A stretch of 64,000 bases of DNA from NCBI RefSeq assembly GCF_030028105.1, contig NC_092375.1:170933415-170997414 (forward strand), written 5' to 3'. The notes under the pieces were generated by a model, which was not told the origin of the DNA, ran no database searches, and saw only the letters and a program-made list of their open reading frames with translations. Shown here piece by piece: positions 1 to 40,600 of this stretch (position 1 is the first letter of the stretch; each line of letters starts with the position of its first letter). A program made the position numbers and the translations under genes. Origin of the DNA: Mobula birostris (Eukaryota).

Positions 1-1449
1 AGGCAGCCAACCAGAAAATCCTCCCCCCTTTATTCTCACTGTTTGCTTCCTGACAGCCAGCCAGTTATCGATCCATCTTTTCTGTAATACCATGGGCTCT
101 TAGTTTGTTAAACAGCCACAGTGTGTCATGTTGCCAAAGGTCTTCTGAAAATCCAAGTAAATTGCATCCACTGACTCTTTGAGAAAAGGAAAGCCTTTAC
201 CTTTTTAATAATATTTACTTTGAAATATTTAAATAGAGTTATAGAGAAGTACAGCACAGATATATTTCTTCAGCCCAGTAAGTCCATGGTGACAAAGGTG
301 CCCCTCAGTTATGTTCTGTAAATCCCTGAAAGGCTTGCCCCTCTGTGTACCTTTCCAAGTGGTTCTTAAATGATTCTATTGTACCTCCCTCAACCATTTC
401 CTCTGATAGCTTGTTCCATATACTGATCACCCTCTGTGTGTAAAAGTAGCCCCTCAGGTCCCTTTTTAAATCTTTTCCCTCCCACCCTAAACCTATGACC
501 CCTAGTTATGGTGTCCCCTACCCTGCGGAAACAATTGCTATCAGCAACTTTTACTGTGCCTCTCATAAATTTAAATGAAGTCATCTTTTATTCTCTTACA
601 TTCCAGGGAATAAAGACCTAACCAGGCCAACCTCTCCTTGTGACTCAGGCTTCTTGTCCTTTCAACATCCTCGTAAATCTTCTCTGCGTTCTTTTCTTTT
701 TTAACCACTTCTTTCCCCTAACAGGGTGACCAAAATTGTATGTAGTACTCCAAGTGTGTCCTCACCAGTCTGCTGTACAATTGCAACATACTGTCCCAAG
801 CCCTGTACTCAACACCCTGACTGACGAAAGCCAGTGTGCTAAACGGCTTTTTAACCACTCTGTCTGTCTGTGATGCTACTTTCAATGAACTATGCACCTG
901 TACTCCTATGTGTTTCTGTCTCACTACACTCTCTAGTGTCGTACCATTCATAGAACAAGTCTATACAGGTTTGACTTTCCAAAATGCATCACCTCATACT
1001 TATCTGTATTAAAATCCTCAGCCCACAACTCAAGCTAATCAAGATCTCCCCGTAACATGTAACAACCTTCTTGGCCGTGCTAAAATCCAAGTAGACAAAA
1101 TTCACTGCCATACCCTCAGCTACTTTTTTGGTTACTTCTTCAAATCAACATTAAAAGATTCATAAAGCATGACTTTCGACGCACAACGTGATCATTCTAT
1201 CTGTCCAAGTGCTATCCCTCAGAATTCCCTCTAGTAACTTCCTCTGTACTGATGTCAGGCTGACCAGTCTGTAGTTCCCTGGCTTGTCCTTGTTACCCTC
1301 CTAAACAAAACAGCATTAGCCACCTTTTAGTCTTTTGAGAACTTCACCACCAGTGGGGAACAATGAAGTAAATATCTCTCCAAGGGCTTCCATAAATTCC
1401 TCTCGGGAATTAACCACCTTAATATGCTATAAGGCTGCAAAAACCTCCT

Positions 1450-1597
1450 GAACACAAGAGATTCCACTGATGCTGAAAATCCAGAGAAACTCACCAGTCC
1501 TGATGAAGGGTTTTGGCCCGAAACCTTAACTGTTTATTCCCAACAATAGATTTTGCCTGGCCTGCTGAGTTCCTCCAGTGTTTTGCATGTGTTACTC
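1450..1597 (+). mobile_element. Short Penelope pseudo-LTR-derived element with degenerate hammerhead motif
   Basis: cagtc CTGATGA A GGGT tttg GCCC GAAA cctt aactg (1495-1532), followed by cctggcctgctgagttcctccag...tgtgtt, the same end as the Penelope at 14088-14736. Confidence 0.75.
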
Positions 1598-2401
1598 TGC
1601 AAAAACCTTTGCCCTGTTAGTATGAATGTTCTTCAGAACATCTCCACTTGTTTCCCTTTTTCTTGAGCCACATAATTTTATCCTCAGTCAGGAGAAATGT
1701 TCATTAATAATCCCACCCACGTTCTGTGGCTCAAGGCATAAGCCGCTCTGTTGATCTCTAAGGGAAGACTCTCTCATTAAATGCTCTTTTAATATAGCTA
1801 TAGAAACTCTTCGGATTTTCCTTAACCGTACATTGCAGATCTATCTCATACCTTACTTTGCCCTTCTGATTTTCCCTTTAAACATATTGTTAGTCTTTAT
1901 ATAGTATCAAGGGGTTCACTTAACCCAACCTTCTCAACCAATGTTCATTTTCTTTTTTTCCTGACCAGATCCTCAATATTCTCTACCAGGGTTCCTTAAA
2001 CATGTTAGGTTTACCCTCACCCTAATAGGAATATGTTGACCCTGGACATGATATCTTAAAAGCCTCCTGCTTGCCATCCATTCCTTTCCACTCAAGCAGG
2101 TTTATCCAATCAACCTCTGCTAGATCTTGTCTAATTTCCACTGCTCCAGTTTAGGATCCTTATCTGTGGACCTGTCCTAATCTTTTCCATCACTGTCTTA
2201 GAAGTAATAAAATCATGGTCACTGGATCCAAAGTGGTCCCTGACTGGCATTCAGTTTCTTACCCTACCTTGTTCCCAAAGAGAAGGTGCAATAATAAATC
2301 CTCCTTAGTAAGGCCCTTTAGGTATTGATTTCAGGAAACTATCCTGGACACACTTCACAAATTCCATCCTGACTGGGCCTCTAAGCTCAGAGTAGCCCAG
2401 T

Positions 2402-2931
2402 CAGAGTTCAAAGTAAATTTATTATCAAAGTACATGTATGTCACCACATACCACCTGGAGATTCATTTCTTGTGGGCATAGTCAATAAATCCAATAACCA
2501 TAATAGAATCAATGAAAGAACACACCAACTGGGCAGACAACCGGAGTGCAAAAGACAATAAACTGCAATTACAAAAAGAAAGATTAAAAAAAGGAAATAA
2601 TGATAAATAAACAAGCAAAAAATATCAAGAAGCTGAGGTTAAAAGTCCTTGAAAATGAGTCCATATGTTGTGGGAACATTTCACTGATGGGACAAGTGTA
2701 GTTCAGTGAGGGTATCCCCCTTGATTCAACAGCCTGATGGTTGAGGAATAATAACTGTTCCTGAACCTGGTGGTGTGAGTCCTGGGCTCCTGTATTTTCT
2801 TCCAGATGTCAGCAGCAAAAAGAGAGCATGATCTGGGCGGTGAGGGTCCTTGATGGTGGACACTGCTTTCCTGTGACAACGCTCCGTGTAGATGTGCTCA
2901 ATGGAGGGGAGGGCTTTAACTGTGGTGGACT
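2402..2931 (-). mobile_element. Rex1/Babar-type LINE 3' fragment
   Basis: Minus strand has ccatcaaggaccctcacc, gaacagttattattcctcaaccatcaggctg and an aataaatttactttgaactctga tail. Confidence 0.6.
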
Positions 2932-3627
2932 AATTAGTGCGAGCTTTTAATTTAAAACACCGTGGAAATTAAAAGCTCCCACTAATACAACCCTATTATT
3001 CTTACTACTATGAGCAATTTCTCTACACACCTGCTCCTCAAATCCTTGTCGCACAATATCCTTGTCACACCTGTAGCACCTGTCTTCTGAAATATTGAGC
3101 TGCCAGTCTTGCACTTCTCTCAGACACATTTCTCATCTAGCTATTACATCCTCGAGTTCAGAACCAATCTACGCTCTGAGTTCGCCTGCCTTACCTGTTA
3201 ACCCTCATGCATTAAAATAAAAGAAATTTCACTGAATATTCATTTCTCTCCCTTTGCTGTGCCCTGGCTATCCTCATTAATAAACTTGTTCTTGCAGTCT
3301 ACTGGGTTAACCCATGATTTGCTACCACTCAGAAATCCCGCCTCCTGCCAACCCTGTGTAGTAATAGCAAATTTCCCTGCAAGGACATTGGTCCCTCTCT
3401 GGTTCAAATGCAACCTATCCCTCTGTACAGGTCACCCCTGCCTCAAAAGAGATTCTAATGATCCATGGAACCTGAATCCCTGCCACCTGCAACAGGTCCT
3501 CAGCCTCACATTCATCAGGCCTGTGTTTCAGTTTCTGACATTGCTAGCGCGTGGCACTGGAAGTAATCTGGAGACCACTACCCTTGAGGCCTTGCTCATT
3601 AACACTTTACCTCATTTGGAGCTCGCT

Positions 3628-4142
3628 ACATGGAGCTTAGAGAAATAGAGGGCTATGTGGTAGGGTAATTCTGCCCAGATTCTAAAGTAGGTTACATGGT
3701 CGGCACAACATTGTGGGCTGAAGGGCCTGTAATGTGCTGTAGATTTCTATGTTTCTATATTTCTGTGTTTCTATCGAGCCTAGTGCTGTTCCTGACTGAA
3801 TTGAACTTTAGTAAGGTATTGGTTATGGTCTTTCTTTGAAGATCCTATGATAGCTATTAGATTTAAGACAACCTATAAGGTATTTGTGCAGTTACTTTAG
3901 TGATAATTGCTCTTAAGTTCCTTCCCCTTCTTTTTGCTTGATTTTTGTACTATTATTGTGAAGGTCACTAATGAAGGTAGTGGAAGTGGGTACTATAGGG
4001 TCTTTTAAGAGACTCTTGGAGCTTAGGAAAATAGAGGGCTATGTGGTAGGGTAATTCTAGGCAGTTTCTAGATTAGATTACATGCTTGGCACAACATTGT
4101 GGGCCGAAGGGCCTTTAATGTGCTGTAGATTTCTATGTTCTA
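3628..4142 (+). mobile_element. Two short 5'-truncated CR1 3'-end copies (about 3628-3775 and 3975-4142)
   Basis: Both read ggagcttag..aaatagagggctatgtggtagggtaattct...gtgctgtagatttctatgtt, similar to the 3' end of the CR1 at 27151-27996. Confidence 0.7.
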
Positions 4143-6164
4143 TATAATAATTTCTTATACTCATTCTGCAGGACCTTGTCTCCTGTTCTACCTATGTCAT
4201 TTGGACTAATGAGTACAACAAACTCTGCTATTTATCCTCCCCCTCAACAACCACTCAGAAACATCATTGATCCTGGCATCCACAAAGCAACACACTATTT
4301 TGGTGTCTCCTCTTCTAATACTTCTAAAATGTCTGTGGTCATCGCCCTTTAAAGGCCTTTTTTGAAGAACAAGCTTTCAGAAGAGCATGTGGGCAGTGCT
4401 TGCAGGACAGTGTAGCCACAGTTTGATAGAAATAGCATAGGAGCGGGTGGTGACAGGGTGTGGGGAGTGCACCGAACAGGCTAGATCAAGCGTAGGTAAT
4501 CTGTTAAATTCTCTTAATTTTGTGTTTTACATTGCATCATTTTAATTTGTAATAATTGTCATCTCTTGATATTAGCTACATAGATCATCTGAATGTCAGT
4601 AAAATTTAGCTTGCTTCCTCAAGGTGAAAAACCAGGAGATGAGCAGATATAACAACATACATTCCTAGAGCAGATTTACACCTACAAACATCTGAGCCCT
4701 TAAATCTTTAGAGATGCAATACAGATGCTGACCACTGATAGAAGTGTTTAAAAATAAATGACTAAAATCAAGAGTGATGAGTTTAAGGATCCTACACAAT
4801 TTCAAAAGAGAAATAACGAGAAGGAAAGGATTCATGGTGGAACGTGGGAGGGATAATTGCACAAGAATCTGGAGTTGAATGGATAAAGGACAAAGACCGA
4901 TGGAGCTCACCCAAAGTAAAGTTGAATAACATTAGAGATTTGTAGAGTATGAAGACTTTGATATAGCATTCGAGAGGAAACCAAGAAGGGAGGGCTGAAT
5001 TCTGTTTGGGTGTTGATTGATGTACTCTTGTCAAGAGTTGGCCGCATAGATAGGTGAGAACCATTTTACAACTGCGCACAGAGCCTAGGAGCTGCCGAAG
5101 GAGAAATCTGGTGGTTTTAGGAGGTGTGCTTATAATTTGCATTATTTTTCCCTTATTTTTTCCACGTTTCCTTCCAAAATATCATGATAGCAGCGCAGAT
5201 CAAACGGAGGACTTCAGAAATAGAATATATGCCACTAGCAATTATTCTTTCCAGATGCATGGATATCTCTCTATTTCTCCGAAGAAAATATGTCGTGCTG
5301 CCACATTAAAGAAATTTATCTGTGGTCTACTAATTGGGTGAGCAAATAAAACAGTTCGTGGCTGACAAAAAGTATAACCTTCAAATTCTTCATATGTCGC
5401 CTTTGTGCTCATAACAGTCAGTAGTAAAAAATTGCTTCACTTATGATCTTTGGCTTTTTTTAAAGCAACAGCAAGGTCTTGGAGTAGGTCTCCCTGGGAG
5501 CAGATCTTGACTTCAGTGCCTTGTAAATTAAATGATGGTGAATCAACAGACTGCTTTGCAACTTCCCATATTTTTGTTTCTGCTGATCTCAACCAACCAC
5601 AGATAAAGTCACAAATCTAAGAGCAGTTCTAATTGTTAGCCTTCTCTGCAAGCAACAATCTCTACCCCGCCCCCCAGTTGTGTGTTTTGTTGTGCATCCT
5701 TTAATTGGCTGCAGTGTTTCAAATATTACAGAACCATTCAACTAACATTTTACCAAATCTGCTCATCTCTCAAAAACTAGAGTCACTTCAGTCCTCTTTT
5801 TTAAAAATGTCTCTTGATCTTCACGAGATCTTTTTTGAACAGAGTCTACTCTCTGAAGATATAACTCTCTAGTTTATGTTCATATTCCCAGAGGTGGATT
5901 GCATTCTCTTTCAGGGCAAGGACAGTATTAACAATGAATGTCAAAGAAACTGTGATGCTAAATATTCTTGATACTGTCAACCAAATAGACCAAACTGGTG
6001 TGTTGGTGTATAAAACAGGTGGCAAGCATGTGGCTCGGTTTATTTCATTTGATAATGAAGCCACTGTGACAAGGCCATTACTTTTTTAAAGAGTAGTAGG
6101 TTTCTCAAAGATTACTGGGGTAATTAAAGTCCCATAAACAACCAGGCAACTGCTATGGAGACGT

Positions 6165-6350
6165 AGGAGACTGCAGATGCTGTAATCTGGAGCAATACAC
6201 AAAACGCTGGAGGAACTCAGCAGGTCAGTCAGCATCTATTGAGAGAAATGGACAGAGGAAGGATCTTGATCCACAACATCAGCTATTCATTTTCCTTCAC
6301 AGATGCTCCCCGACCTGCAGAGTTCCTTCAGCAGTTTGTGTGTTGTCCAA
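6165..6350. mobile_element. Palindromic (foldback) non-autonomous element made of inverted Penelope pseudo-LTR ends
   Basis: The arm caatacacaaaacgctggaggaactcagcaggtc..agcatct is inverted relative to agatgct..gacctgcagagttccttcagcagtttgtgtgttg. Confidence 0.75.
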
Positions 6351-7628
6351 GGAGCTGCTATGATTTGTATATCCTGGGATTACTTGGAATCCCTGATATT
6401 AGAAATGAATTCATTGAGTGACTTGCTTTGTACTAATCACTGCTCAAAAGAACAAGTTGTAGGTTGGTGAGGTGGCCTAATAACTTTACTCTGAATACAA
6501 TTGATTTTTAAATGTTATCTCTGAAGTATTCATCGTAAAACATGTGACATCATCTACCTTAAATTGTCCAAGTAACAAAACTTTAAAACATTATTGGACA
6601 AAATTTGACTCCTGCTCATGTTAAAGGAGAGGAAGCAGACCTAAAGTCAAGTTGGACACTCAGTGTCATTTTCCCAGCAGCCTTGCGTTGGTCACTGCCT
6701 AAACCCAGCAATAACCTCATCGGTCTGTGCTAGCCTGCATTTAGTATCACAGAAACATGTAACAGTTTTAATGTCCCTGTTGTGGCCTAATGCCTAAGGC
6801 GTGGAAATTTTGAGGGATCAATTACAATGTGATATTCACTGAATGACATTGCAGTTTGGTATTTAATTTCTAAGACCAGACCTTCTTTTTAGACTCACTT
6901 TGTTTTCTACTGATGTTGAAGATTTGCAATGAGACCTTTCATATTTTTTCCTTTGTAACATCTCCTTTGTACGCAATGAATATCATTATGTGCCGTGTCA
7001 TGACAACTATATTATAGAGTTTTTTTCATTTTTCAAATCTATCATAACTGAAGTTAATTAGACCAAAATAAACTCCAGATACTGGAAGTGCAAAACAAAT
7101 CTCCAAGTGCTGGAATATACAGGGGATCAAGCAGTGTCCATCGAGATAAAAAAACATTGGGCTAACATTTTAGATCAATGATTCTTCATCAGGATCAAAG
7201 TGGGGATAAAGGAGTTTCAAGTTGCAGAAAGGGGGATATGAAGAAAAGGGAGAGGATTTCTAAGATAGAGTGCAGGCTGGTGTTATCAAGATAACTCTGA
7301 CTTCAAATGCAGGCCATTAGAGAGATGAGAAAAACAGAAACAGAAACTGAACCTGTAATAGCCAGCAACATTTATAGAGAGAAGCAAAACATTTGAATCC
7401 AATACTGAGATCTGCAAAATAGCCATGCAGAAGATGAGGTGCCGTTCCCTGGGAATCTTTGGAATGTTTCAACACGACAAGGACAGGAGTCAAAGTGGAA
7501 ACTGGACAGGGAAGTGACCATGGCTTCTGACTACCATAGTTGACAAGAATCTCAACCATGTGTCTTCTTTTTCCTGCTCTTCGGCTTATAACATTGTTAA
7601 TAATTCATTTCCTTTTCACTTTGCACAG

Positions 7629-7697
7629 GGGCCTCCAGGACCTCAAGGTCTTCCAGGAGGTCGTGGTTTACCTGGTGAGGGTTGGCCAGGAATGAAG
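7629..7697 (+). CDS. COL28A1: Collagen exon A (69 nt) [23 protein letters not shown]
   Basis: ttgcacag|GGG...AAG|gtatat; phase 0-0. Confidence 0.93.
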
Positions 7698-13600: not shown

Positions 13601-16600
13601 TGGGACCCTACAAGAGGTCAGAGGGATTAAGCAGTTAAACAACTACCTATAATTTAACCGCACTCCTCACCACTCACACATTAATCACAACCCTGGCTGA
13701 TGAGATTTAGTCCTGGGTAAACAACCAAAATTTTAGTTATAACAACAAGATCTTCAGGGTCAAATAATACAAGTATCAGATCATTTTATTCAAATGTTCT
13801 CTTAGTAGCGAGAGTCTTCCTTGGTAGATATATTCATCTCATGAACTGATTCCAACCTCTGTTTAAAAAAAGCAGAGCATCTTACAACAATGCCATATAC
13901 TTTAACCATTAAACTATCTGCTGGATACTTAAACTAATAAACAACCTGCTGGATACTTTAACCAATAAACAATCTGCTGGATATTTTAACCAATAAACAA
14001 TCTGCTGGAGGACCTCAGTGGGCCAAGCAGTATCAGTAAGAGGCAAGAAATTGTCAACGTTTTGGGTCAAAACACTGCATCAAATTGCCTTCTATATATT
14101 GGCAAGACCTGACACAGCCTGAGAGACCGTTTCGCTGAACACCTATGCTCTGTCCGCCAGAGAAAGCAAGATCTCCCAGTGGCCACACATTTTAATTCCA
14201 CATCCCATTCCCATTCTGATATGTCTATCCACAGCCTCCTCTACTGTAAAGATGAAGCCACACTCAGGTTGGAGGAACAATACCTTATATTCCGTCTGGG
14301 TAGCCTCGAACTTGATGGCATGAACATTGACTTCTCAAACTTCCGCTAATGCCCCACCTCCCCCTTGTACCCCATCCGTTATTTATTTATATACACACAT
14401 TCTTTCCCTCACTCTCCTTTTTCTCCCTCTGTCCCTCTGACTATACCTCTTGCCCATCCTTTGGGTTCCCCCCCCCACTTGTCATTCTCCCTGGGCCTCC
14501 TGTCCCATGATCGTCTCATATCCCTTTTGCCAATCACCTGCCCAGCTCTTGGCTCCATCCCTCCCCCTCCTGTCTTCTCCTATCATTTTGGATCTCCCCC
14601 TCCCCCTTTTAAATCTCTTACTAGCTCTTCCTTCAGTTAGTCCTGACGAAGGGTCCCGGCCTGAAACGTCGACTGAACTTCTTCCTAGAGATGCTGCCTG
14701 ACCTGCTGCATTCACCAGCAACTTTGATGTGTGTTGATCAAATTGTTTGTTGCTTCACATTTTAGCGTATGCAGTCTCTTGTGTTCCCCCACTCCACACA
14801 TATTTATATATCAGTATTGTTTGCATTGGAGCAAATTCAGTGGACTAAGCATCAATGCATTGACCAAATGATGTGACACTTTATAACTTTTAAAAGACAG
14901 TTCATGAGGGCTTGGTTATTGCCTCAGATCTCAAAAGCTAAATTGATAGCCTTAATTCTTTTATTTCGACGTGAGTTCCATTTCTGTGAACTACGGATTC
15001 AGCCTTCCTCCTGTATTAAAAACTTGCTCCAGTGGTGTGCAATTTTTTATTCTGAACAAAATTCTTAATTTTCCATGTAAGACTAAAGCACGATATCTGG
15101 GAATGTGAATGTTATCAAGGAAGTCGATTCAAAATGGAGATTAGAACAACATGAATATTTTGTAAATATTTCTCTCTGCAGAACTGAATCTTGAATTCAA
15201 GTAATAATTACCTAAACCAACATTTGATATATTGTTTGGTATACAAAAGTAAGTTCAGATATGGTATCTCTTGTTATTATTACATTTGTTAATGTACCAT
15301 TTCACTTCTGAAATGTAACTCATCAGGGTGAAATAGGTTTTCCTGGATTACCTGGCCCTGTTGGTCCTCCTGGAGTTGGTCTACAAGGTGAAAAGGTAAT
15401 TATTTTGCATTTACTCTTAATTCAGCAAGTAACTCCTGTGACTTTTTCAATATTGAGTGCATACCTCCTGAAGAATGTTTCCAATTGCTCCCTACATTGA
15501 TAAAGTTATTTTGGTGTAGAACTGGCTGAATGAGTTTTGTCTGTTAGATAACAAGCACATAGTAGAAAATGCTCGCAGATGTTTGCACGTAGTTGTCTAA
15601 GATACCAGTTATCTTCTGGTGTTTTAGTGAAAAAGGTATGTACTGTGTCCAGACAGCCTAAACTTTCCACTTGACATGCAACTTCCTTTACATGTACAAT
15701 TCAAACAATATAATTATTGTAGCAGTTATTTCCGGCATGTATTCTTATCTGTGTGAACTCAATTCGGGCATTGTTGGTGTGCAGAAAGATGTGGCCTTTG
15801 TCAGCCATATGTGGAGGTCTTCATTCTATGTTCTGTTGTAAGATGGTGTATTCGGTCAGTAGTTTCTGCAAAATAGATGGCAGGTCCCAATATTTGGCTA
15901 AGCTTCATTCATGTGCATGCTGAACCCTTAATACAGGTGTTCCCAACCTTTTTTATACTGCCATGGACCCCGACTTTAACTGAACAGTCTGTGGACCCCA
16001 AGTTGGGTACCCCTGATCTAAATGCTTTTAAATGTTGTAATCGTTTCCAGCTCCTTCCACTCACTTCCTCTGACTGACACACACACACACACACACACAC
16101 ACCCCACCATCATGTGAAAAGCTTGCCTTTCCGGACCCTTTTAAATCTTCCTCCGCTTTCACCTTAAAATTATGTACTTGTTTAACCTTGGAAAAAGACT
16201 GTGGGCATCCATCTTATCTACTGTACATCCCTTGCAATTTTATACATTTATGTAGGGTCACCACTCAGCAGGAGGCAGGATGAAGTCCCAGCCTATCCAA
16301 TCTCTCCTTTCAATTTAAGTACCCTCCCTCAACTCCCAACAATGTCCTTGCAACCCCATTCTGCATCCCTTCCAGCTCAATTTCTTTACTGCTATTTCCC
16401 ACCTTAAGCTCCTTCAGCTGCATTATCAATGATCTTCCTTCCATAGGGTAAGAAGCAGCACTATTTGTTGTTGATGCCACAATGTTTAATTCTATTAGCG
16501 ACTCCTTCGAAAATGAGGTAGTCCCTAGCCACATGGCCATGTGTGGCTGTTGGCAATGTTGCCATGTAAGTGCCAGGCACTAATGAGAGAACCAGCTACC

Positions 16601-19600
16601 CTTAACATTCAATGGCAGTAGCGTCACCAAGTCTCTCACTATTAACACTCCAGCTGTTGCCAGACACTCAGCTGGATCACCACATAAAACTGTGACAGCA
16701 GGAGCAGGTCAGAGGCTGGGTACCTCACCTCCTGATGGGTTCCTTCCCAGCCAGTGAAAATCTGTCATAATGAATTTCAAAATCTTTCTTGATGACTCCC
16801 GCACCTTGCTCTCAAACCTATTTTAGAGTAATGCAGAATTTCACTGGTCAAAATGCGTTAAATTGAGGCAATTTATTTTGTATAATCTGGTAGGGAGTCC
16901 TAGGTCCAAGAGGACCAGCTGGCCTGAGAGGACCTCCAGGTGAGGGCTCGCCTGGATCAAAGGTAAGAGAAGCAAAAAGCTGCTAAAACGATTTATTATT
17001 TTCACAAACTTTAACACAAATTCTGAAGTCTGCTGAGGCATTCAAGACCAGTGATCCAGAACTATAAAAGAATTCCAGGTATGACCTATGGTGCAATCTA
17101 CAGAAGGCTAGTTTAAGAGTGAAAAAAAAACCAATTTCAATTGAAGTTAGAGATGGAACTGGATGCACGTCCGCTCTGGCAGGGTTCTCAGGTCTTTACT
17201 TCCTACAAAGTGAAACCCTAACATCATGAACAGCTGTGATTCTTCACTCCCAGATGAGCTCAATGCCTTTTATGCACGCTTTGAAAGAGACAATAAAATC
17301 ACACCCATGCGAATCCCTGCAGCATCTGGTGACCCTGTGATCTCGGTCTCGAAGGCTGACGTCAGAACATCTTTCAAGAGGATGAACCCTTGCAAGGTGT
17401 CAGGCCTTGATGGTGTACCTCGTTTGCCACTGAAAACCTCTGCCAACCAACTGGCAGGAATGTCAAGGACATCTTCAGTTTCTAACTGCTGCAGTCAGAG
17501 GTTCCCTACTGCTTCAAAATCATGCCAGTGCCAAAGAAGATCAGGGCGAGCTGCCTCAATGACTATCGCCCAGTTACACTTACATCTACTGTGATGAAGT
17601 GCTTTGAGAGGTTGGACATGGCCAGGATCAACTCTTGCCTAAGCAAGGACCTGGACCTGCGGCAAATTAGAATAGGTCTACAGCAGACGCAATCTCTTTC
17701 AGCTTTGGATCACCTGGACAATAGCAATATCTATGTCAGGCTGCTGTTTATTGACTACAGCTCAACATTCAACACAGTCATACCCTCAGTTCTAATCAAC
17801 CAGCTCCAAAACATGGGCCTCTGTACCTCTCTCTGCAACTGGAGCTTTGACTTTGTCACTGGGAGACTAGAGACTGTACGGATCAAAAGTGACTGATAAT
17901 CAACACTGCCACACCCCAGGGATACATGCTAAGTCCAGAACTCTACTCTCTCTACATCCATGACTGTGTGGCTAGGCACAGCTCAAACACCATCTTTAAA
18001 TTTGCCAATGACACCATCTTTAAATTTTCAGATGTTGACGAGGAGGAGTACAGGAGCGAGATAGCTGAAAGACGAAAAGCAAATTACCTGAAACTGTAGG
18101 GTTGGATATTGAATACTGAAATCTGCAGTATGCTCAAAAGGAAGATGTGTTGTTCTTTACTGAAAGGACTAATTGTAACAGTGCAGGCCACCAGATAGAT
18201 GATTCAAAGTGGGAGTGGGCTGGAGAACTAAAGTGGCAGGCAAACAGAGCTCGAGGTCACTTCAATGTAGGTGCTTTGCAAAGCAATCGCCCAATCTTGT
18301 TATAAGGAGGTGGCTAGGAATGGACCCAAGTGCAAGACACAGACACTGAAGTACTAGGGACAGGACTAGGATACAGGGCAATGGCAAGGACATGGACAGG
18401 AAAACCAGGAACCTGGAACAGGACTGGACAAAAGAGCTAGGAGCCCAGGCTTGGACTCCGAGCCATAGACTGGACAAGGACCCAGTACCTGGGTCTTGCC
18501 TCTGGCTCGGACCCCAGAACTAGGCAAGGAAGAAGCTTGGCTGGCAGGCAAGACGAAGCTGGAGTCTTAGAGATTTGAGGCGAGGCTTGGCAGGAGGCAG
18601 GAGACGAGGCGAGGCTTGGCAGGAGGCAGGAGACGAGGCGAGGCTTGGCAGGAGGCAGGAGACGAGGCGAGGCTTGGCAGGAGGCAGGAGACGAAGCGAG
18701 GCTTGGCAGGAGGCAGGAGACGAGGCGAGGCTTGGCAGGATGCAGGAGACTTGAGACGAGGCTTGGCAGGAGGCAGGAGACGAGGCGAGGCTTGGCAGGA
18801 TGCAGGAGACGAGGCGAGGCTTGGCAGGATGCAGGAGACGAGGCGAGGCTTGGCAGGATGCAGGAGACGAGGCGAGGCTTGGCAGGATGCAGGAGACGAG
18901 GCGAGGCTTGGCAGGATGCAGGAGACTTGAGGCTAGAGACCTGAGGCGAGGCTTGGCAGGATGCAGGAGGCTGGAGTCTAGAGACCTGAGGCGAGGCTTG
19001 GCAGGATGCAGGAGACTTGAGGCTAGCGACTTGGCAGGAGGCAGGAGACTGGAGGCTAGAGACCTGAGGCGAGGCTTGGCAGGAGGCAGGAGGCTGGAGT
19101 CTAGAGACCTGAGGTGAGGCTTGGCAGGAGGCAGGAGGCTGGAGGCTAGAGACCTGAGGCAAGGCTTGGCAGGAGGCTAGAGACCTGAGGCGAGGCTCGG
19201 CAGGAGGCTAGAGTCTTCAGGCTTGAGGCTCGGCAGAAGGCTGGAGTCTTCAGGCTTGAGGCTCGGCAGAAGGCTGGAGTCTTCAGGCTTGAGGCTAGCT
19301 AGGCTCCTCCTGGGCAGGGTGCGGTTCACCCGGGCAGGGCACGGTACTCCTGGGCAGGGCGCAGATCACCCCTCGACAGAGGCAAGGGACAGGAAGGGAG
19401 CTAGGTACAGGGTGGCTCCAGGACAAGACTACGGGCGAGAGTTACCAGCAAGACAAGGCAAGGCTTCAGGCAATGCAAGGCGAGACAAGAACTTCAGGTG
19501 AGGCAAGAGTTACCGGCAAGACAAGGCAAGGCGGGACGAGAGCTTCAGGCGAGGTGAGAGTTACCGGCAAGACAAGGCAGGGCTTCAGGCGAGGAAACAG

Positions 19601-22600
19601 AAGGCAGAGCAAGGGATACAAGGAGTAAGGACAAGAACAATCCAGCAGCCACACCCTGGTCTCTGGAGGTATTTATGCAGCCAGCCCCAATGAGCATCAG
19701 CTGCCTCAATTAGAGCTAAACAAGAACAGAAACAGGGTAAACAGGAAAACCTGGAGCAAGGGTCGATGGACCGGACCATGAACCGGAATATGGATTTCAC
19801 GGACTGGACCATGACAAATCTGTGTTTGTTTTCACCATTTTTGGGGAAACCACCTTTTGAACAATAAATGCAGTGGACTACATTGGAGGAAAACATGCGC
19901 AGTATGCTAATGGAACTCAGCAGGTCAAGCAGCATCTATGGGAATGAATAAACGGTGGATGTTTCCAGCCAAGACCCTTCATCAGGACTGGAAAGGAAGG
20001 GGGTGGGGGAAGATGCCAGAACAAGAAGGTGGAGGGAGGGGGAGGTGGACAAGCTAGAAGGTGATAGGTGAAGCCAGGTGGGGCGGGGGAGGGCATGAGG
20101 TAAGAAGCTAAGGGGTGATTAAGTGGAAAACGCAAAGGGCTGAAGAAGAAGGAATCTGACAGGAAAGGACAGTGGATCGTGGAAGAAAGGGAAGGTTGGG
20201 GAGCAGTGTGGGAAGGTTATTGGCAGGTGAGGAGAAGAGGTAAGAAGCCAGAGTGGGGTAATTGAAGAAGAGGGGAGGGGGAGGGGTAGAAATTACCAGA
20301 AGTTGGAGAAATCAATGTTCATGCCATCAGGTCAGAGACTGCCTAGATAGATTATGAGTGCTGCTCCTCCAACCTGCATCATCATGCAGAAGAGGAAGCC
20401 ATGGACCGACATGTTGGAATGGGAATGGGGAATGGAATTGAAATGGTTGGCCAGTGAGAAATTAGGCCTTTTGCTAATGGAGCTGAGGTGCTCAACAAAG
20501 CAGTCCCCCAATGTACTCCCAGATTGGAAGAAATGCAAATGAATTGTTGTGTCACTGGAAAAGGAGTGATATTTCTCAGGGATCAAAAATGTAAAATGAC
20601 AAGTATTGCATCTCCAAGGTTGCATGGGAATGTGCTGTGGGAAGGGAAGAGATCAACGCTGATTTGAAAAGCTTGAAAAGGGAGCTGATAATGTGTCTGA
20701 TGGTGGAACCTCTTTGGAACCGGTGGAAATTGCAAAGGTTGTGGAGGCTAGTGGGCTGGAAGGTGAGGACCAGAGAAACTACCCTTACTCTGTTCAGGAG
20801 GGATGGGATAAGAGCAGTGTTGTGTGGAATAAAGCATTTATTGGACTTCAACAGAGATAGTAAGTGCCAGTCACTGCTTTCCTATTCCCAATGATTTGAA
20901 TTTACATTTCCTTGGTTGGCATGATAGGATCTGAACTCATGTCCCTCTACTATTATAAAAACCCTTTATAGAGTAGCCTATCTAAATAAGCTGCCATATC
21001 CTTGCATACCAATACATCGGACTAACTTATTAGGGCATTTCATTCAATGTACCAAGGCACCAATATGCTTCTTCGGCCTGATTGGCCCAAAACGATAGCT
21101 GTATGATGTGTGATTTATATCCACACCTTTGGACTAAGTGGGTAATTAAAGGTGGCATGTCCTGGTGCCTTCAAAACAAGGGGATTCCTTGCTCTTGGTC
21201 GAGGAGAGAGAGAGATCGAGCTGCCAGGAGTTCACATTGGACAAAGTATGGAGCTGCTATTGAGTTTTCTGGTAGATATATTTTTGTAAATATTGGCACT
21301 TTTCTTTTCACTATTTTCACTATTTGTTGTAAGTTTGATTTTTTGACGCACTGAACATCCTTGCATGAAAGTGCTAAGTGATTCTAGCCATCTTTTCTTT
21401 GATCGTAGCCCAAAATCTAACACGGTGCATTTCACAGAGTAAGTGCCTCTTGTCTGCTGCCACAAGCAAAAGACCCATCTAGATTGTTTAATTTATTTTT
21501 ATCTCCAGAATTTGGGTCAGAATAGTGAATAGAAGAGAATGTTTTGTCCCACTTTACTGACATCAGAAACACCTTTCTTGGCATCCTGTCAAAGTTGAAA
21601 TTGGTACTACTGCCACATTGAGTTGTTATAGACTTTTAAGTCTATAGCAAATTCACAATAACCATGATTACCAACCAAAGTGCCATGTACTCCCCTTCCA
21701 TGTGCTTCATACCTGTGGTGTGAGGCAATCACAACTGCAAGTTAAGTGATTGAGGGCAATTAAAAAATGTCTTGCCTGCTTGGAATTAAATTTAGTTTAC
21801 TTAGTTGTTGTATCATTTTTACTTCAGATTATTTGTATAAAGCATATATTTTAATTAAATTTGAACATAATTCTCAAACCATTCTGCAGGGCGATCAAGG
21901 TTTGCCTGGAGAAATTGGAGCTCCAGGAGAAAGAGGAATTGGAGAGCCAGGACCAAAAGTAAGTGAGAAAAATAAGTAAAAATAAGTGAGAGAGAAGTAA
22001 GAGAAACATCAAGGAGACTGGTGGATAGTTTTATTAACAGAAGACAAATAATACCTGTGAGAAATGTGTTTGAAATGACGTCCATTAACTTGAAATCATC
22101 AAATGTATTTCAAAATTATTCATAGCCATTTCTCTTGAGGCTGATGTTGCTTTAAAGAAAAGGTAGATGAGATTAGAAATTTTGACTAAATTCTTTTTAT
22201 CTTCTTTGTATATGCTAAAATTAACATAACAGGTTTCCTGTTAAAAATCTTGCGCTGTTGAGGACTACACAGCTGAACTGCTGATAAGTTGCTTTTGTCT
22301 TTGTGCAGAGTGCCATCTATTGGACATTTACAGGAACTGGACCTCAGTTTTGTCATGTTTAATGGCAACTAACATAAATTATACTTTTAATATTGAAGAA
22401 TGCTTTATGAATAAAAGGGCTAGCATTAAATTGAATGACCTATGATATTCCAACACAAGTAAGTTTTTTTCAGTTTTGTATTACCCGTCAAAACTGCTAC
22501 TGAATTTGCGATCTGGCCTAAACCGATGTGGTAGATTGGCAGTGGAAATTCATCCTGTTCTTTGTGTTTAAAATCAGGTAATGTCTGATTGAATCTAATT

Positions 22601-31600: not shown

Positions 31601-34600
31601 CGCCCAGAGGCACCATTACACCCGTGGAAGTGGCCTTTGTCATCATGGCAAAGAGTGCAGATTGACTTTGTGGGGCATTCATGGACTCCATATTTCTGAT
31701 TGCTGTGGATCCTCATTCAAAGTGACTGGAGATTATACCAATGAAGTCAACCACCTCAGCAAAGACTGTCTCCATTCTGAAATGGCTTACACAAACAAAT
31801 TGTGAGTGACAACAGACCACAACACATGTCAGAAGCATTCTGAATGGTCATGAAGAAAAATGGCATCAGACATTTCAAGTCATCTCCTCACCGTCCAGCA
31901 ACGAATGGGTTAGCTGAAAAATCTATCCAGACCTTCAAGAGGTCCATTAAAGCATGGACAAGGAGGACATTTCTCTACAGCACAAGGTGGACAACTTCCT
32001 TTTTGTGTATCAGAACTCTGTTCATGCAATGACAAATCAAATACCTGCACTGCTGTTCATGAACAGGAATCTGAGAACTTGCATCGACCTCCTGAAACCA
32101 GATCTACGGAGGGAAGTGCAGAATAGCCAGTTCAGCCAGTTGCCAATTTAAGCAGCAAGGAGCTTCAAGATTGGACAGGAAGTCATAGCGTGTGATTACT
32201 GAGAGGAGAAGTGGACACCCGGTAGGACAGCTACAAGAACTGGACCACTGATGTACACGGTGGATGTTGGAGATCAGACATAGAGACGTCATGTGGACCA
32301 GAAACTGGATGTTCAACTGAAGAACACACCTGAGTTAATTGCATCCAACTAGTTGGACACATTACAAGCACCAGACTTATCTCTCAGTGATGATCATGGT
32401 CAGTGTCAGCAATGTGACACTAGAAACTGAGAACGTTGTCTTAGACAAGATACCTGCCAAACCTGATGCCACCCCACAGGACCAGAGGCGCTATCCTGAA
32501 AGAAACAGAATTCAAAAGACTGAACTTTTAGAACTGTGAAGTTAGTTATGGACTGTTATTGTGAAAGCATATTTATTTGGAATATGGGTTTATGAAAGGG
32601 AAACTGAATGTTTTGTACATAGACAGTTTTATGTTGCATTAATCTAAAGGGGGAGGAAGTGTAATGTATGGATCTGTTCCTTTTAGAGCAATGAACCCCC
32701 CACCCCCTTAGCACTATGTATTGATCTGTTGTCTGCACATATGCTGTTGTCCATGCACGTGCATTGTTCTTTCTCTCTCTCTCTCGTTGCAATGTAAACA
32801 CACCAGTTAAAATCATCTCCCGCATGTGTGCATTTATTTAATTGATATGTAACTGTGCACAGAGACAACATGCAAGTGCAACATGTGAAGGTTCTACAAC
32901 AGGTAGTCAAAACTGCCCAATGTGTCACTGGCACCAACCTACCCACCGTCAAGGACGTATATACACATACAGGGGAGGGAGAGGGAGAAGGAGAGAGAAA
33001 TCCTGATTGGTCTCTCTTTGTACTAAGTAGACCTATCAGTTTTGTCTGTGGGCAGGCTTTACAGTCAACCTCCCCCTCTCTTTCATTGTCCATCAGTTCA
33101 GTTTAGTGCCCTGCAGCGCCATGGCAGAGTGTTCCAAAAAAAGAAAATATAAAATGTACTTCACCCCAGACTACACTAAAGTGTACCCCGCCTAATAGGG
33201 GCCAAAAATAATGACAGTGTTGCTCGCTGCACTGTTTGCAACAGTGACTTTTCTATTGCCCATGGTGGGTTAAATGACTGTAAAAGACATGTTGAGGTGA
33301 GTCCTGGATTATGTCTCAACTAACTTTGAAGGACTGGTGCCAAACTACAAAAGTTTGCCAGTTGATGAGTTCTGGGGGAAGCTGTCCAAAGTAAAATCTG
33401 TGAGCACAGGGCACTTGAGATTCAAAAAGCTCTGCCAGTTGATGAAGCTGCTTTTGGTGCTGCCAAATTCTAATTGTGATGTAGAAAGGGCATTCAGCAT
33501 GATGCATCACATTAAGACAGAATTCAGAAGTTAGCTGTCTCACAAAACACTTGTGAATCTGACGTTTTGCAAAATTAACAAATTCATTGACACAGACTGC
33601 TATGAGGTTGAGACCTCCCTGAAATGAGTTTTTGCAGGGTGGGATGTCTGTATACAGAAAAGGGCCAGTAGCATCATGAAGGTTCTCATCCACCCTGCTC
33701 ATGTACCATAAGGTGGATCAACACTTCCACCCACTAACCCACCCCTCCAGACCCCCAACCACCACTACTTTATCATTTCCTGTCAGTCACATTGTATACA
33801 GACACTCTTGGGCCTAGCATCACTTTATGGACATACAATCAATCTATGTATGTAAGCTCTCTTACATATTTATAATTATTGTGTTTTTTAATTTTTATTA
33901 CATTCTTTATCCTATTGTATTTTTGGGCTGCATTGGATCGGGAGTAGCAATTATTTTGTTTGACTTACACTACTGTACTGGAAATGAGATTAAACACTCT
34001 TGAATCTTAGATCCTGAATTGCCACAGGATGACAAATGTAAATAATTACCCCCCCCCGCACCCCCAAGTCCAGAAATGCAAAAGGAAAAAGTTACTGCTT
34101 CTTCCTTACCGCCTCTTGTCTTTTTATTTCTTACAGGGTGATATAGGTCAGACTGGGCTGCGAGGTTTGATTGGTCCACCTGGAATAACAGGGCCAACAG
34201 GACCAAAGGCAAGTTGTAGTCTATATTGGTTGTTGTACACACTGGAATTTTAGAATTTCATCTAATTCTGCTACATGTACCTGATTAGACAGAAGATTTA
34301 TCAACTGCAAAGGAGGTGGGGATGAGAATAACAATGGAAATTTAAAGGTCACACTTACCTAGAGAAGGAAGGATGTTTTGGATTCCTAGCCCAACCCAAG
34401 ATGCATTGAGCTACATATACTGCCTATAAAAAGTATTCCACCCCCCACCCCCCGGAAGTTTTCATGTTTTATTGTTTTGCAACATTGACTTTAATTTGGC
34501 ATTTTTGACAGTGGTCAACAGAAAAAGACTAGTGTCAAAGTGAAAACCAACCTCTACAAAGTGATCTAAATTAATTGCAAATATAAAACACAAGACAATT

Positions 34601-37600
34601 GATTGTGTAAGTATTCACCCCTTTTAATACAACACACCAAACAATCACTGGTGCAGCCAATTGGTTTTAGAAATCACATAATTAATGAAATGGAGATCAA
34701 TCTGTGTGTAGTCAAGGTGTTTCAATTGATTGTAGTTAAAGTTCACCTGTATCTGGAAGGTCCAACTGGGATTAGATCAGTTATAGATTATGGTTGTATT
34801 GCTTATGGTTTTGCTGCTACGGCAGAGCTTGGAAAACTGGACACTGTGCAGTCCAAAGCACTTAGACTCTGTTGTGGAGCTTTTAGAACAGCATCAGTCC
34901 CGGCATTATGTGTGGAGATGGGAGAAGTGCCTCTGCATTTAAGACGAATTCAGTTGGGCCTGTAGTATTGGGTAAAACTAAATGGATTCAATCACAGCTG
35001 TCCGCTAAAGTGTCTTTTGCAGGGGAAGTCGGAGTGCCAAAGTAAAATTAAAAGATACCCATTTTTAGATTTGGTTAATAACTGGGCTGTGAAATTGAAA
35101 CTGACTGAGGAAGACATAGTTGACCAAATTTGCTTGCCACCCATCCCTTTTTGGCTCTTTCCAGAATCAGAAGTAAACCTATTTCTCCTTTTTCAGCTTA
35201 AAGGAAGCAGTGCAATTTCATCAGCGTTGATCACAAATGAATATTTAAATAATAAATATGGATCTTATCTGAAGATTTTTCCTGATGGCTCAGTGGACCC
35301 AGAGAGCAGTAGGGCAGGATTTGGGATGTATGTGTCTCAACTTGAAGTTAAGGTTGGTCACCGGGTTTCAGGTGGTGTTTCTGTCTTTGCAACAGAATTA
35401 TTAGCAATCCTCTGGGCTTTATGGTGAATAGAAGACTCTCGACCACATAGGGTTATCATCTGTTCGGATTCTGCTGCTGTCTTAGAGTCTGTAAAAGGAA
35501 GTAAATCAAAAGCTCGTCCTGACTTAGTTATTGAGATTCTCTTAGTGTTGTTTAGAGTAGGGAAGATGGGTTGTGCAATTAGATTTTCATGGATACCTGG
35601 GCATGCTGGGGTGGAGGGAAATGAAATTGTGGATGGCATTGCAAAGTCTTCCTTACAGAGCAGGCAAGTAGAAATTAGAGTTGCCCTAGGCAGAGCAGAG
35701 TTGAGAAGTAGGATTAAAAAAGGTATAGAGAAGAAGTGGCAGGAGGATTGGAAAAATGAATTAAGGGGCAGGCATTATTTTTCTAGTCACCCACTAGTTA
35801 AAAAGGTCTCAGACTGTTACCTTTTAAGTTGTAGAGATATGGTGAAATTTACAAGACTTAGGTTGGGGCATTGTGGGCTAAACTATTATTTAAATGTAAT
35901 AGGAAAATATCCTGCTGGATTATGTGACTGTGGTAGTCCAGAGACAGCCCAGCATGTTTTGCTGAGCTGTAATCGATACAAAATTGAAAGAAGCATGTTG
36001 TTCAAGAGGCTATCTGGCTTAAATTTATTTTGGTTTTCTATTAAATCTTTGTTTGGCCATCAAGAGAATCAATATCTGATTGAAGAGGCCATTATTCAGT
36101 TTATACGTGAGACTAGGTTGTATTCAAGAATTTGAGTTCCTTGAAGTTCTATAATTAATTATACATCCTGCGGAGGGCTGTAATACGCCTAGATGCGTCT
36201 AAACAGCCAGAAACAGAAGAAGAAGAAGAAGGCCCAACTGCTGGTGAGCCAGTATCCTGGCAAAAACTACACCACGAAGTCAAAAGAACACTCCAAACAA
36301 CTCCACAAAAAGGTTATGGAAAAGCACAAGTCAGGAGATGGATACAAGAAAATTTCCAATATCCCTTGCAGTACAGTTAAGTCAATCATCAAGAAATGGA
36401 AAGAATACAGCACAGCTGTAAATCTGCCTAGAGCAGGCTGTCCTCAAAAACTGAGTAACCGTGTAAGAAGGGGACAAATGAGGGAGGCCACCAAGAGACC
36501 TATGACAACTTTGAAGGAGTTGTAAGCTTCAGTGGCTGAGATGGGAGAGACTGCACATACAACAACTGTTGCCAGAGAAAGCCACTGTTGAAAAAACACT
36601 TACATGAAATGTCAGCCAGAGTTTGCCAGAAGACATGTGGAGTCAACTGGAAGAAGGTTCTATGGTTTGATGAAACCGAAATTGAGCTTCTTGGCCATCA
36701 GACTAAACACTACACATCATCACAAACACACCATCCCTACTGTGAACAATGGTGGCTTCATCGTGCTGTGAGGACATTTCACTGGATCTGGCCCTGGAAG
36801 GCTTGTGACAGTAGGAAGTAAAATGAATGCAACAAAATACATGGAAATCCTGGAGGAAAACCTGATGCACTCTGCAAAGGAACTGCGGCTCAGGAGAAGA
36901 TTTGCTTTCCAGCAAGACAATAACCCCAAGCATAAAGCCAAAGCCACACAAGAGTGGCTTAAAAGCAACAAAGTTAATGTCCTGGAGTGGCCAAATCAGA
37001 GTGCAGACCTCAATCCAACTTAGAATTTGTGGCTGAACTTAAAAGGTGCTGTTCACTCATGCCATCTGACAGAGCTTGTGCAGTTTAGTAAAAAAGAATG
37101 GGGAAAAATTGCAGTGTCCAGTGCAAAGCTGATAGAGACCTGTCCACAGAGACTCAAGGCTGTAATTGCTGCCAAAGGTGCATCTACTAAATACTGACCT
37201 GAAGGGGGTGAATACTTCTGCAGTCAATTATTTTGTGTTTTATATTTGTCATAAATTTAGACCAATTTGTAGAAATCTGTTTTCACTTTGACACGCAAGA
37301 GTCTTTTCTATTGATCAGTGTCAAAAAAGCCAAAGTAAATCCATTGTCATTCAATGTTGTACAATAGAACATGAAAACTTCCAAGTGGGGGGGGGGGGGT
37401 TGAATACTTTTTATCAGCACTGTAATTAATGCCAATGCGGACATCAACACTTTAGCTAGGATTTCCTTCAATATTTTCCCAGACATCATGTGTGGTAGAG
37501 ATTTGTCATAAATTTCAGAATTTTGAAGAGATAAGATGGCATGTTAATAAACATGTTGAGATCTTTTTGTAAAATCCAGTTCTAAAATTAAATGCACAAA

Positions 37601-40600
37601 TTAACATTCTACTGAATATCAACAAAAGAGCGCTAACATCATCAATTTAATGCAACGATCTGCTGGAAGAACTCAGGAGGTCGAGCAGCATCTGTGGGAA
37701 GAAAGGAATTATCAGTATTTTGGGTCAAAACTGTGCATCAGGACTTTTGCCCCCAAACATCAACAATTCCTTTCCTCACTCAGACACTGCTCAACCCACC
37801 GAATTGCTCCGGAAGATCACCTGTTGCTGCAGGTTCCAGTATTTGCTGTCTCTAGTGTCTCCATTATCAATTTGATGCTGACAGTATAAGATGTTGCCAG
37901 GAAAAAATACAAGATCAGGGCTTTAAACCATTGGCAGGAAAGAGGCAACCATGACCACAACTGGTGAGGCTGTTCCACAGTGAAGATTGACTACAAATAC
38001 GACTTCAGCAAAAGCAACAATCTGATCTGACTTCATGTCAATCATATTTGAGCTTAACCCATTTTTATTAAAGGAAATGGATCAAGGATTGACAGGTTAA
38101 GAATATAAGATCAATGACAGTCTGTTTGGTTTTGATTCATATTGTTAGGGTGAACCAGGTGCTACAGGACGCCTAGGAATGCCAGGCCTTCCAGGACGAG
38201 GCATTATCGGATTGAAGGTACACACGCTGTATTTTGGTAGAATATTAATATGTACCTGTGAAAATAAATGGCAAACAATTATAAATATTATAAAAAACAC
38301 TCTTCCAACTATTTATTCATAGCAATGAAAAACTAGTAATTTCTCACAAACTGGCTATTCATAAAACAAGATAAAAGATGTACCGTACACAGATTCCTTC
38401 TTTCCAGATCTCACATTAAAGATGAACTTTCTTTGATGACTCCTGCCTTTTTAAATGGATCTGTTAGGATAATTCTGGATGAGTCTCTAGCAATTTCCTT
38501 CACTTTGTGACCCAGTGAACAGAATTAAGTTACCAAGTATTTCGATTATGTACGTGCTACTGTCACAGAGGCTGTGGTAAGTAACATCGTTTCAAGTTAT
38601 CTTCAGAACCTGCAGTCTCGAGCCTCCAGACCACCGAGAGTGCAAGTGAAGCTCAGGGGATGTCTCCATTGTCTCAGGGAACGTGGCTGTCAGGGAGGCC
38701 AATATGTAAAACTGAAGACCTCAGAACAAGATTAAAGTACTAGAGGGGCATCAAGAACAGTTGTTTACTCTTCTTCTCAGAGGTCTGGTTCACTCCCAAC
38801 ACTCCTGACAGTGCTCCAACCCAAGGCTTCACCATCCACTCCATGGTAGCAGCATCAGGTAAAGGCAGCGGTATTTGCTTCATGTTGGCTTCATCGTGGT
38901 GCAGAGGCATGGCAGTCCTGTCTCAGTTCTGCCCCCATGACTTGTACCACCTGGTGGTCATGTATCACCCTTTCTGTTTGCCAAGGGAATTCACCGCTGC
39001 CATCCTGGTTGCAGTGTATGTTCCACCCTGGCAAATGTCAGGCTGGCACTGGAGTAGCTGAGTACTGTGATCAACAGTCTCAAGGCAGTGCACCCTGATC
39101 CTTCCTGAATATTGTAGGGGACTTCAAACAGGCCAGTTAGAAGAAGTCTCTGACAAACGACCACCAACCAGTCACCTGTGGAGCCAAAGGAGCCAACACA
39201 CACACTCGATCACTGTTACACCACCACTGAGAACGGTTACCGTGTCATCCCATGCCCGCACTTTGGCAAGTCTGATTGCCTGGCTGTACTCCTACTCCCA
39301 GCATACAGGCAGAGACCGAGGGCCTCAGCACCATGAAGACTATTTATAGGATTGTTTTGATTTGGTAGACTGGACCATATTCAGGCATTCATCTTCAGGA
39401 GCCTTGAAAGAATTAGATTTGCAATCTGTTGAGGGTTGCATTTATAGCATTCAAGACAGGCAATCCAGAACCCTACAAGGTCCAGATACAACCTACAGCA
39501 GGCTATCATGAGAGTGAAAAGGTAATTCCAGGCAAAGTTAGAGGCACAATAGCTGTGGTAGAGTTCCGTGCCAGCGGGTCGACTTCTTTAGGAGTTTAAG
39601 GAGGTTTGGTATGAACACAAAAGACTCCTGCAAATTTCTACAAATGTACAATGGAGGATATTCTGGTTGCATCACTGCCTTGCATGGATGATCTAAGGCA
39701 CAGGATCAAACAAGGCTGCAGAGGGCATCTCCATTGCAGGCACAACCCTCCCCACCGAGGAAATCTTCAAGAGGCAATGCCTCAAGAAAACGGCATCCTT
39801 CATTAAGGTCTCTCACCGTCCGTGTGTGCCCTCCTCTCATGACTACCATCAGAAATGAGTTACAGGAGCGGAAGACCCACACTCAGTGTTTTAGGAACAG
39901 CTTCTTCCCCTCCACCATCAGATTGCTAAATGGTCCATGAACCCACGAACACAAACTTGATATTCATCTTTTGCACTATTTATCTATTTTTGGAACTTTT
40001 AGTTAGTTTTATGTCTTGCACGGTTCTGCGGCACAAAGAATGATTTTCACAATATATGTCAGTGATAATAAACCTAATTCTGATTCTGACTCTGATAGTG
40101 CTTTATTGATCAATATTTTGTATAGGGCGATCCAGGTCCCCCAGGTCCCATGGGTCCTGTAGGTGAAACTGGAGTAGGAATCCCAGGTCCTAAGGTAGGA
40201 AATAAATACATTTTTAAGACTATTATAGACAGGACTAATGTCATAATTTTCTGGTTTTCAAAGTAGGACAGCAAAAGTGAGAATATAGATAAGATTTCAA
40301 GGAATTTCTGATTTCCAGTCATGCCTTCAGGGGATGTTGTTACTACTAAAGCCTGCTTTAACAGTTGATCCCTAAAGGTTGTTGGGCTATTTCAGAAGAC
40401 ACTGAAGAGTCTAACCACTATTAAGGGTCCAGAGTCACATTTATGGCAGATAAGGACTGATGACAGAGTCCCTTCCCTGAAAGACATTAAAGGCTCGATG
40501 GGGATAAGCATTACAGAGAATAGCAATGGCTTTCAGCAGGGCAGAGTCTGGAAAAAATCTTGCTGCACCCCTACCTCCAAACACTGTGTTTTTCTGCATT

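Follow-up and report, generated by a model that had tools for sequence, protein, structure and literature searches.

Hammerhead-bearing foldbacks in the genome of Mobula birostris as likely truncated insertions of a Penelope-type element

Penelope-type ends in the introns of a collagen gene

The window, i.e., the whole 64-kb stretch analysed here as one piece of a 4.0-Gb genome, covers introns of a host collagen gene that can be recognised by its Gly-X-Y exons and a vWA exon. A profile of the pseudo-LTR (pLTR) end of Penelope-type elements matches it nine times, with two further short tail pieces. Numbering within the end takes C3 of the hammerhead core as its origin, which places the predicted cut after +27; an arm is termed tail-less if it ends near +95 and tailed if it ends near +130. 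The features are:

1435..1446 and again 1597..1608, + strand: target duplication CTGCAAAAACCT of the 1451 element, 12 nt, exact (score 12)
1451..1596, both strands: lopsided head-to-head insertion, found by profile match (fold z -1.0)
1451..1493, - strand: its tailed arm, about 42 nt, from about +87
1494..1596, + strand: its tail-less arm, from about -6, with hammerhead C3 at 1500 and the GUC triplet lost
6142..6157 and 6347..6362: 16-nt duplication of the 6158 foldback with 3 mismatches (score 7, borderline)
6158..6348, both strands: foldback with decayed hammerhead core (fold z -8.0 for 6160-6350)
6158..6255, - strand: its tailed arm, from about +30
about 6256..6348, + strand: its tail-less arm
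7066..7204, - strand: single decayed tailed pLTR end, found by profile match
13897..14008, + strand: four 28-bp tandem units, each of 14 nt of flank and the first 14 nt of the tail-less end
13995..14082, - strand: tail-less arm of an older foldback, of the same lineage as the one at 37654
14088..14736, + strand: young coding Penelope copy, truncated at its 5' end and comprising the endonuclease C-terminus with one stop, the 3' UTR and a tail-less end
14746..14786, + strand: tail piece of the older foldback, with the nested copy between it and the other arm
19892..20520, - strand: second 5'-truncated coding Penelope copy, with a tail-less end and a near-intact hammerhead at 19985
37637..37653 and 37862..37878: 17-nt duplication of the 37654 foldback with 2 mismatches (score 11)
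37654..37861, both strands: foldback with decayed hammerhead core (fold z -3.2 for 37645-37865)
37654..37748, - strand: its tail-less arm, from about -3
37749..37861, + strand: its tailed arm, from about +11
58307..59011, + strand: vWA exon of the collagen gene (Pfam VWA, E 9e-43); the elements lie between Gly-X-Y exons

The four elements that had been named from the letters alone, at 1451, 6158, 13995 and 37654, all carry the Penelope pLTR end, as was then proposed (profile E 3e-11 to 6e-32, with 0 matches in the false-positive control, the 1.06 Mb of arbitrary sequence described below in reversed form). They follow a common plan in which a tail-less arm stands head to head with a tailed arm, and they belong to different lineages with different junctions, the tailed and tail-less arms starting at about +87/-6 (1451), +30/+5 (6158), +83/+1 (13995) and +11/-3 (37654). 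The duplication score of the 1451 element stands against a maximum of 9 among 300 random flank pairs, and that of the 6158 foldback exceeds the 95th percentile of the null but not the 99th.

The long hairpins assigned to 6165 and 37645 are borne out, as is the hammerhead-derived sequence within them, with the qualification that an intact hammerhead core occurs on neither arm of either. For the element at 1450-1597 the same test gives no hairpin above chance against shuffles of 1454-1600, one of its arms measuring only about 40 nt. What had been read as an antisense hammerhead remnant at 7160-7197 belongs to a whole decayed tailed end at 7066-7204, in whose flanks neither a partner arm nor a duplication was found. 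The coding copy at 19892-20520, which was absent from the original prediction, is flanked by an 11-nt duplication with 1 mismatch. In an Rfam scan of the window, the hammerhead family had no match at E<=5 and hairpin matches arose only at chance level; four sub-threshold microRNA matches fall at 37665-37810.

Two observations concern the older elements. A contig of run X1, about 93% alike over 37400-37891, has the 37654 foldback at the same site and is gap-free within the element, so this insertion looks old and inherited. The core of the old lineage (37654-37748, 13995-14082 and loci L002-L030) has CTGATGCA in place of CTGATGAA, which amounts to a C in the place of A9 or of the extra base.

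The four named elements are short and non-coding, as first proposed, with the exception of the one at 13990-14790, where a young truncated coding Penelope copy (14088-14736) occupies the centre of an older foldback (13995-14786). The inner copy is bounded by a 9-bp target duplication, ATCAAATTG, at 14079-14087 and 14737-14745, retains an intact minimal hammerhead core at 14643 and has 39 other scored copies at 92-94% identity; judged by its translation and by the Pfam-scanned frames of copies that are 92-94% identical in DNA, its segment 14092-14349 is a predicted endonuclease remnant. No outer duplication is recognisable in the flanks of the older foldback. The young copy sits at the junction of the foldback, which may be chance or may point to a preference for hairpin tips. 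The tandem at 13897-14008 has a 14+14 register that equals the duplication length and might be a trace of repeated priming or of later slippage.

The parent element and its hammerhead

Young copies of the parent have a monomer of 3.47-3.73 kb with an open frame of 1038 aa in one copy. In 2 of 4 frames matches are obtained to RVT_1 (E 1e-5) and GIY-YIG (E 2e-4), both just under the Pfam cut-offs, which agrees with the proposal that the Penelope RT/GIY-YIG machinery mobilises these ends. Among 15 loci picked by the 5' part of the ORF, 11 have the hammerhead-pLTR continuing directly into the 5' end of the ORF; therefore, both ends of the insertions are internal sites of the RNA. The full-length copies (L255-L263) come in two monomer lengths, about 3.47-3.49 kb and 3.64-3.73 kb, and what sets these apart is the repetition of a segment that lies some 2.5-2.7 kb before the hammerhead.

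The minimal hammerhead core is intact in 27 of the 36 young arms that cover it; of 40 sampled pairs, only 2 keep an intact core on each arm. The antisense arm of a foldback is no ribozyme and would pair with the sense arm. The hammerhead is likely a passenger, and the foldback copies would be dead on arrival.

Abundance and layout across the genome

An arbitrary sample of 106 stretches of 10 kb each (1.06 Mb; 108 were fetched and 2 discarded as N) contains 249 pLTR ends and 40 head-to-head pairs, the density of pairs being about 38 per Mb. Scaled up to the whole genome, these counts would correspond to roughly 9 x 10^5 ends and 1.5 x 10^5 pairs. A single exact hammerhead 26-mer occurs 30,007 times genome-wide, and the very high copy number that had been anticipated is thereby confirmed; the density in the window itself, with nine ends in 64 kb, is below the average of the arbitrary sample. 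A symmetric pattern that uses exact centre anchors only matches 5,235 young foldbacks genome-wide. The first 40 among the matches listed form the centre-picked sample, and every one of the 40 has exactly one tailed and one tail-less arm. The 40 pairs of the arbitrary sample comprise 34 of a tailed with a tail-less arm, none of two tailed arms, 1 of two tail-less arms, 3 that are unclear and 2 at an edge, so that the one-tail rule holds in 34 of 35 clear pairs (binomial p 2e-9).

Of 20 young pairs, 16 have both arms enclosed by a target duplication of at least 7 nt (mode 14 bp), against a control rate of 1.5%; across all ages it is found in only 38 of 80 pairs. An exact duplication of 12-17 nt accompanies 25 of the 40 centre-picked foldbacks. 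Sorting 103 young arms by the insertion to which they belong assigns 64 to inverted insertions and 11 to plain ones, the remainder being 20 for which no duplication was recognised and 8 of other kinds; the inverted form can thus be seen as the usual product. Direct neighbours in the same orientation are found for 5 of 235 ends.

In a set of 25 young pairs (8 from the arbitrary sample and 17 from selected loci), foldback length is continuous from 151 to 1476 bp and reaches into the ORF, many of these pairs having ORF sequence on one or both arms. Among the sampled pairs, 36 of 40 are shorter than 240 bp, a proportion in which long pairs are under-called given the profile length of 0.83 kb; further long pairs were seen in the set of full-length copies.

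One insertion per site and its probable mechanism

We hold it probable, at about three chances in four, that each foldback is a single insertion of the coding Penelope element with one tailed and one tail-less pLTR arm and a duplication of about 14 bp, arising likely by twin priming. In such a scheme, an enzyme predicted to act as a dimer would nick both target strands about 14 nt apart; of the two internal start sites, the distal (+128..135) would serve for one cDNA and the proximal (+93..98) for the other, both cDNAs would end up truncated, and end-joining by the host would then link them head to head. Synthesis primed in the leading pLTR would run off at the 5' end of the RNA near -4, which would explain the hammerhead sequence at the centre of the foldbacks. 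We infer both the priming on the two strands and this run-off; an alternative to the latter is a stop of the reverse transcriptase at stem I. What the copies themselves display is a single duplication around both arms, two fixed outer ends, arms truncated independently at the centre and source variants common to the two arms. A parallel might be drawn with LINE-1 twin priming, wherein two target-primed cDNAs are joined head to head by microhomology within one duplication and the arms span non-overlapping parts of one RNA. Unlike in LINE-1, the foldback arms both span one and the same stretch of the pLTR, with a fixed start site for each.

The arm ends at the centre are far from evenly placed. 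For 19 of the 40 centre-picked foldbacks (6.2 expected) the end of the longer arm falls within -5..-1, and for none does it lie beyond -13 (8.0 expected), which gives p 6e-8 against uniform truncation within the limits of the pattern. Seven of the 28 core-covering young arms in the arbitrary sample end at -5..-1, and one full-length copy starts exactly at -4. This edge matches YYAGTCC, which we take to be Inr-like. The junctions show 0-6 nt of overlap or short filler; in the centre-picked sample, a CpG variant of the reference makes the placement of junctions around +20 less sharp, and at 2 of the 40 loci the join is a GTCGAC palindrome within which the exact point is not placeable.

Two other sources of the arm ends were tried and rejected. 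Hammerhead cleavage would place ends at the cut site, where 80 arms show no pile-up (arms stopping after +28 could not enter this set): one lies at +28, an alignment artefact at a deletion, and one at +26, to which come the two loci that join in GTCGAC. A spliced template was considered for the resemblance of the front edge to a splice acceptor; a sense 12-mer from elsewhere in the monomer precedes 0 of 36 arms starting at -8..-1.

The second arm could alternatively be made by self-priming, i.e., by fold-back copying of one strand, as was proposed on an antisense template for rotifer Penelopes in the available part of PMC3846280. The two arms do share source variants, at +33 and +45 (p 4e-5 and 1e-4; 35 of 40 pairs kept), and at some junctions the stems of the hammerhead itself form a perfect palindrome, as such copying would produce. 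With a fixed template polarity, however, one arm type should always be the longer at the centre, whereas either type is (22 vs 16 of 40). Hundreds of unpaired bases can lie on either side (e.g., tailed +62 with tail-less -499, or tailed -964 with tail-less -178), many junctions have filler instead of a hairpin tip, and self-priming alone gives no two fixed outer ends. We thus regard it as an unlikely origin of the second arm.

A bolder extension of twin priming, which we consider doubtful, would make an obligate asymmetric form of it the default insertion route, with a dedicated short RNA from the Inr at -4 to the tail serving in trans. A separate short pLTR RNA (about -4 to +135) made from solo ends, which would act as a SINE-like trans template and be twin-primed into foldbacks, appears quite improbable. 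It draws on the wall at -5..-1, on the small size of most sampled pairs (36 of 40 below 240 bp) and on the few ORF-bearing copies in the old lineages; against it, the full-length mRNA already begins with this segment, making an extra RNA unnecessary, and the 0.83-kb profile under-calls long pairs. The old lineage (37654 and 13995) has junctions clustered near -4..+11, among loci partly chosen by likeness to 37654, and the sign of a coding parent is weak, a single remnant of the endonuclease (E 1e-6) lying some 0.8 kb upstream of an end; for that lineage, a short template RNA is thus a possibility.

A copied family or independent insertions

The original prediction was of a non-autonomous, retrozyme-like palindromic family, for which shared fixed junctions were named as a test. 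The junctions vary, an outcome that the prediction itself had listed as contrary to a family: besides the four different ones in the window, all 25 junctions of the young pairs differ from one another, and the centre-picked copies have 36 kinds in 40 with 4 repeats. Copying of whole foldbacks from master loci, retrozyme- or MITE-like, might still be argued from the sheer density of about 38 pairs per Mb and the 5,235 young foldbacks with exact anchors, from one exact junction that occurs 9 times genome-wide and from the clustered junctions of the old lineage. Those 9 copies compare with 5,235 young foldbacks, and the recurrent junctions among the matches listed sit, as judged by eye, on short inverted matches within the hammerhead stems; they fit microhomology hot spots, to which small bursts of copying may add.

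The arms themselves also speak against copying as units. No arm-specific variants were found except at the tail-less-boundary columns, and the tailed-tailed, tail-less-tail-less and cross distances are alike. The same layout recurs with ORF-bearing arms, foldbacks are present in all four lineages with both arms of the same lineage in 34 of 36 sampled pairs, and two intact cores in only 2 of 40 pairs, together with the lack of the tandem repeats that retrozymes need (bioRxiv 2026.07.22.740005, as far as its available text goes), are at odds with a retrozyme. Thus, copying from master foldbacks is largely refuted for the young lineage and taken overall is very improbable. A conserved function of the hairpin was likewise tried and set aside, arm divergence within and between pairs being nearly equal (0.066 vs 0.070 in the young set and 0.301 vs 0.302 in the old). 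An origin as MITEs or other DNA transposons is rejected on the ends, which are unequal by about 35 nt, on the duplication mode of 14 bp and on the fact that no TA or 8-bp duplication, either of which had been offered as a sign of such transposons, was seen.

The foldbacks can thus be seen as real and abundant stubs, the shortest insertions of an ordinary Penelope-type element, likely formed afresh at each site; a new mobile or ribozyme family does not stand.

Relation to known systems

The layout of inverted pLTRs with a one-sided tail has been published and is described as typical of these elements in the available sections of PMC3846280 and PMC8557442. The EN+ Penelope-like insertions recounted there resemble ours in their head-to-head inverted 5'-truncated pLTR, one-sided tail of 30-40 bp and target duplication, and further in their partial tandems, heavy 5' truncation and extreme structural variety. 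In the same portions of these papers, the duplication cited for rotifer copies is 8-10 bp and the tail is called 'optional'. Unlike those insertions, as presented there, the arms here are mostly cut to 30-140 nt, the duplication mode is 14 bp, the tail is on exactly one arm and arm lengths speak against self-priming. The formation of the inverted ends and tail is termed undefined in the accessible part of PMC8557442.

The nearest experimental counterpart is the anole Poseidon element PAc, whose enzyme, according to the available part of PMC11167929, is a predicted dimer that in vitro cuts and extends both strands and uses two start sites, which there, too, are internal sites of the RNA. As in PAc so described, the pLTR overlaps the start of the unit, two RT start sites 30-40 nt apart follow the hammerhead at a distance of about 100-130 nt and hammerhead cleavage is not needed. 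The likeness is one of layout, and that part of the study derives neither inverted foldbacks nor a one-tail rule; since the enzyme in vitro had no strand difference in start site, the one-tail rule is unexplained by the anole work.

The hammerhead agrees with the minimal ones of metazoan PLE pLTRs, as reported in the accessible text of PMC4209133, in its type I core, lack of loop 3, extra base after A9 and dispersal in thousands; such hammerheads are expected there to be functional solely as dimers. As one of the two copies in a head-to-head pair is antisense, the other lacks a dimer partner. Non-LTR retrozymes, in the available text of bioRxiv 10.64898/2026.07.22.740005, are direct tandem repeats with an intact hammerhead per unit. 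The foldbacks share with them a non-coding, hammerhead-bearing sequence derived from PLE pLTRs and differ in that each is one inverted pair, its cores being broken and its junction varying from copy to copy. The openly accessible main texts searched yielded no account of a strict one-tail rule or of Penelope twin priming and no description of such foldbacks in cartilaginous fishes.

Implications and further observations

The foldbacks may serve as a test set for the mechanism of Penelope insertion, as the wall at -4, the rule of exactly one tail per pair and the duplication of 14 bp that encloses both arms lead to precise expectations for the in vitro system already established and speak against self-priming. 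At about 38 per Mb they also concern repeat annotation, in which they resemble MITEs or microRNA hairpins. Were the dedicated short RNA real, then the foldbacks, roughly 100,000 or more, would be what a SINE-like pLTR RNA has left behind in the DNA, and in cartilaginous fishes they would supply much double-stranded RNA within introns; inverted Penelope copies are reported to yield siRNA in flies in the available part of PMC3681739.

Two other repeats in the window may be mentioned. At 49711-50046 there are two nested inverted repeats of 44-48 nt that are unrelated to the Penelope ends and are probably a small DNA-transposon derivative, and at 18437-19296 there is a compound minisatellite with units of 29, 45 and 33 bp.
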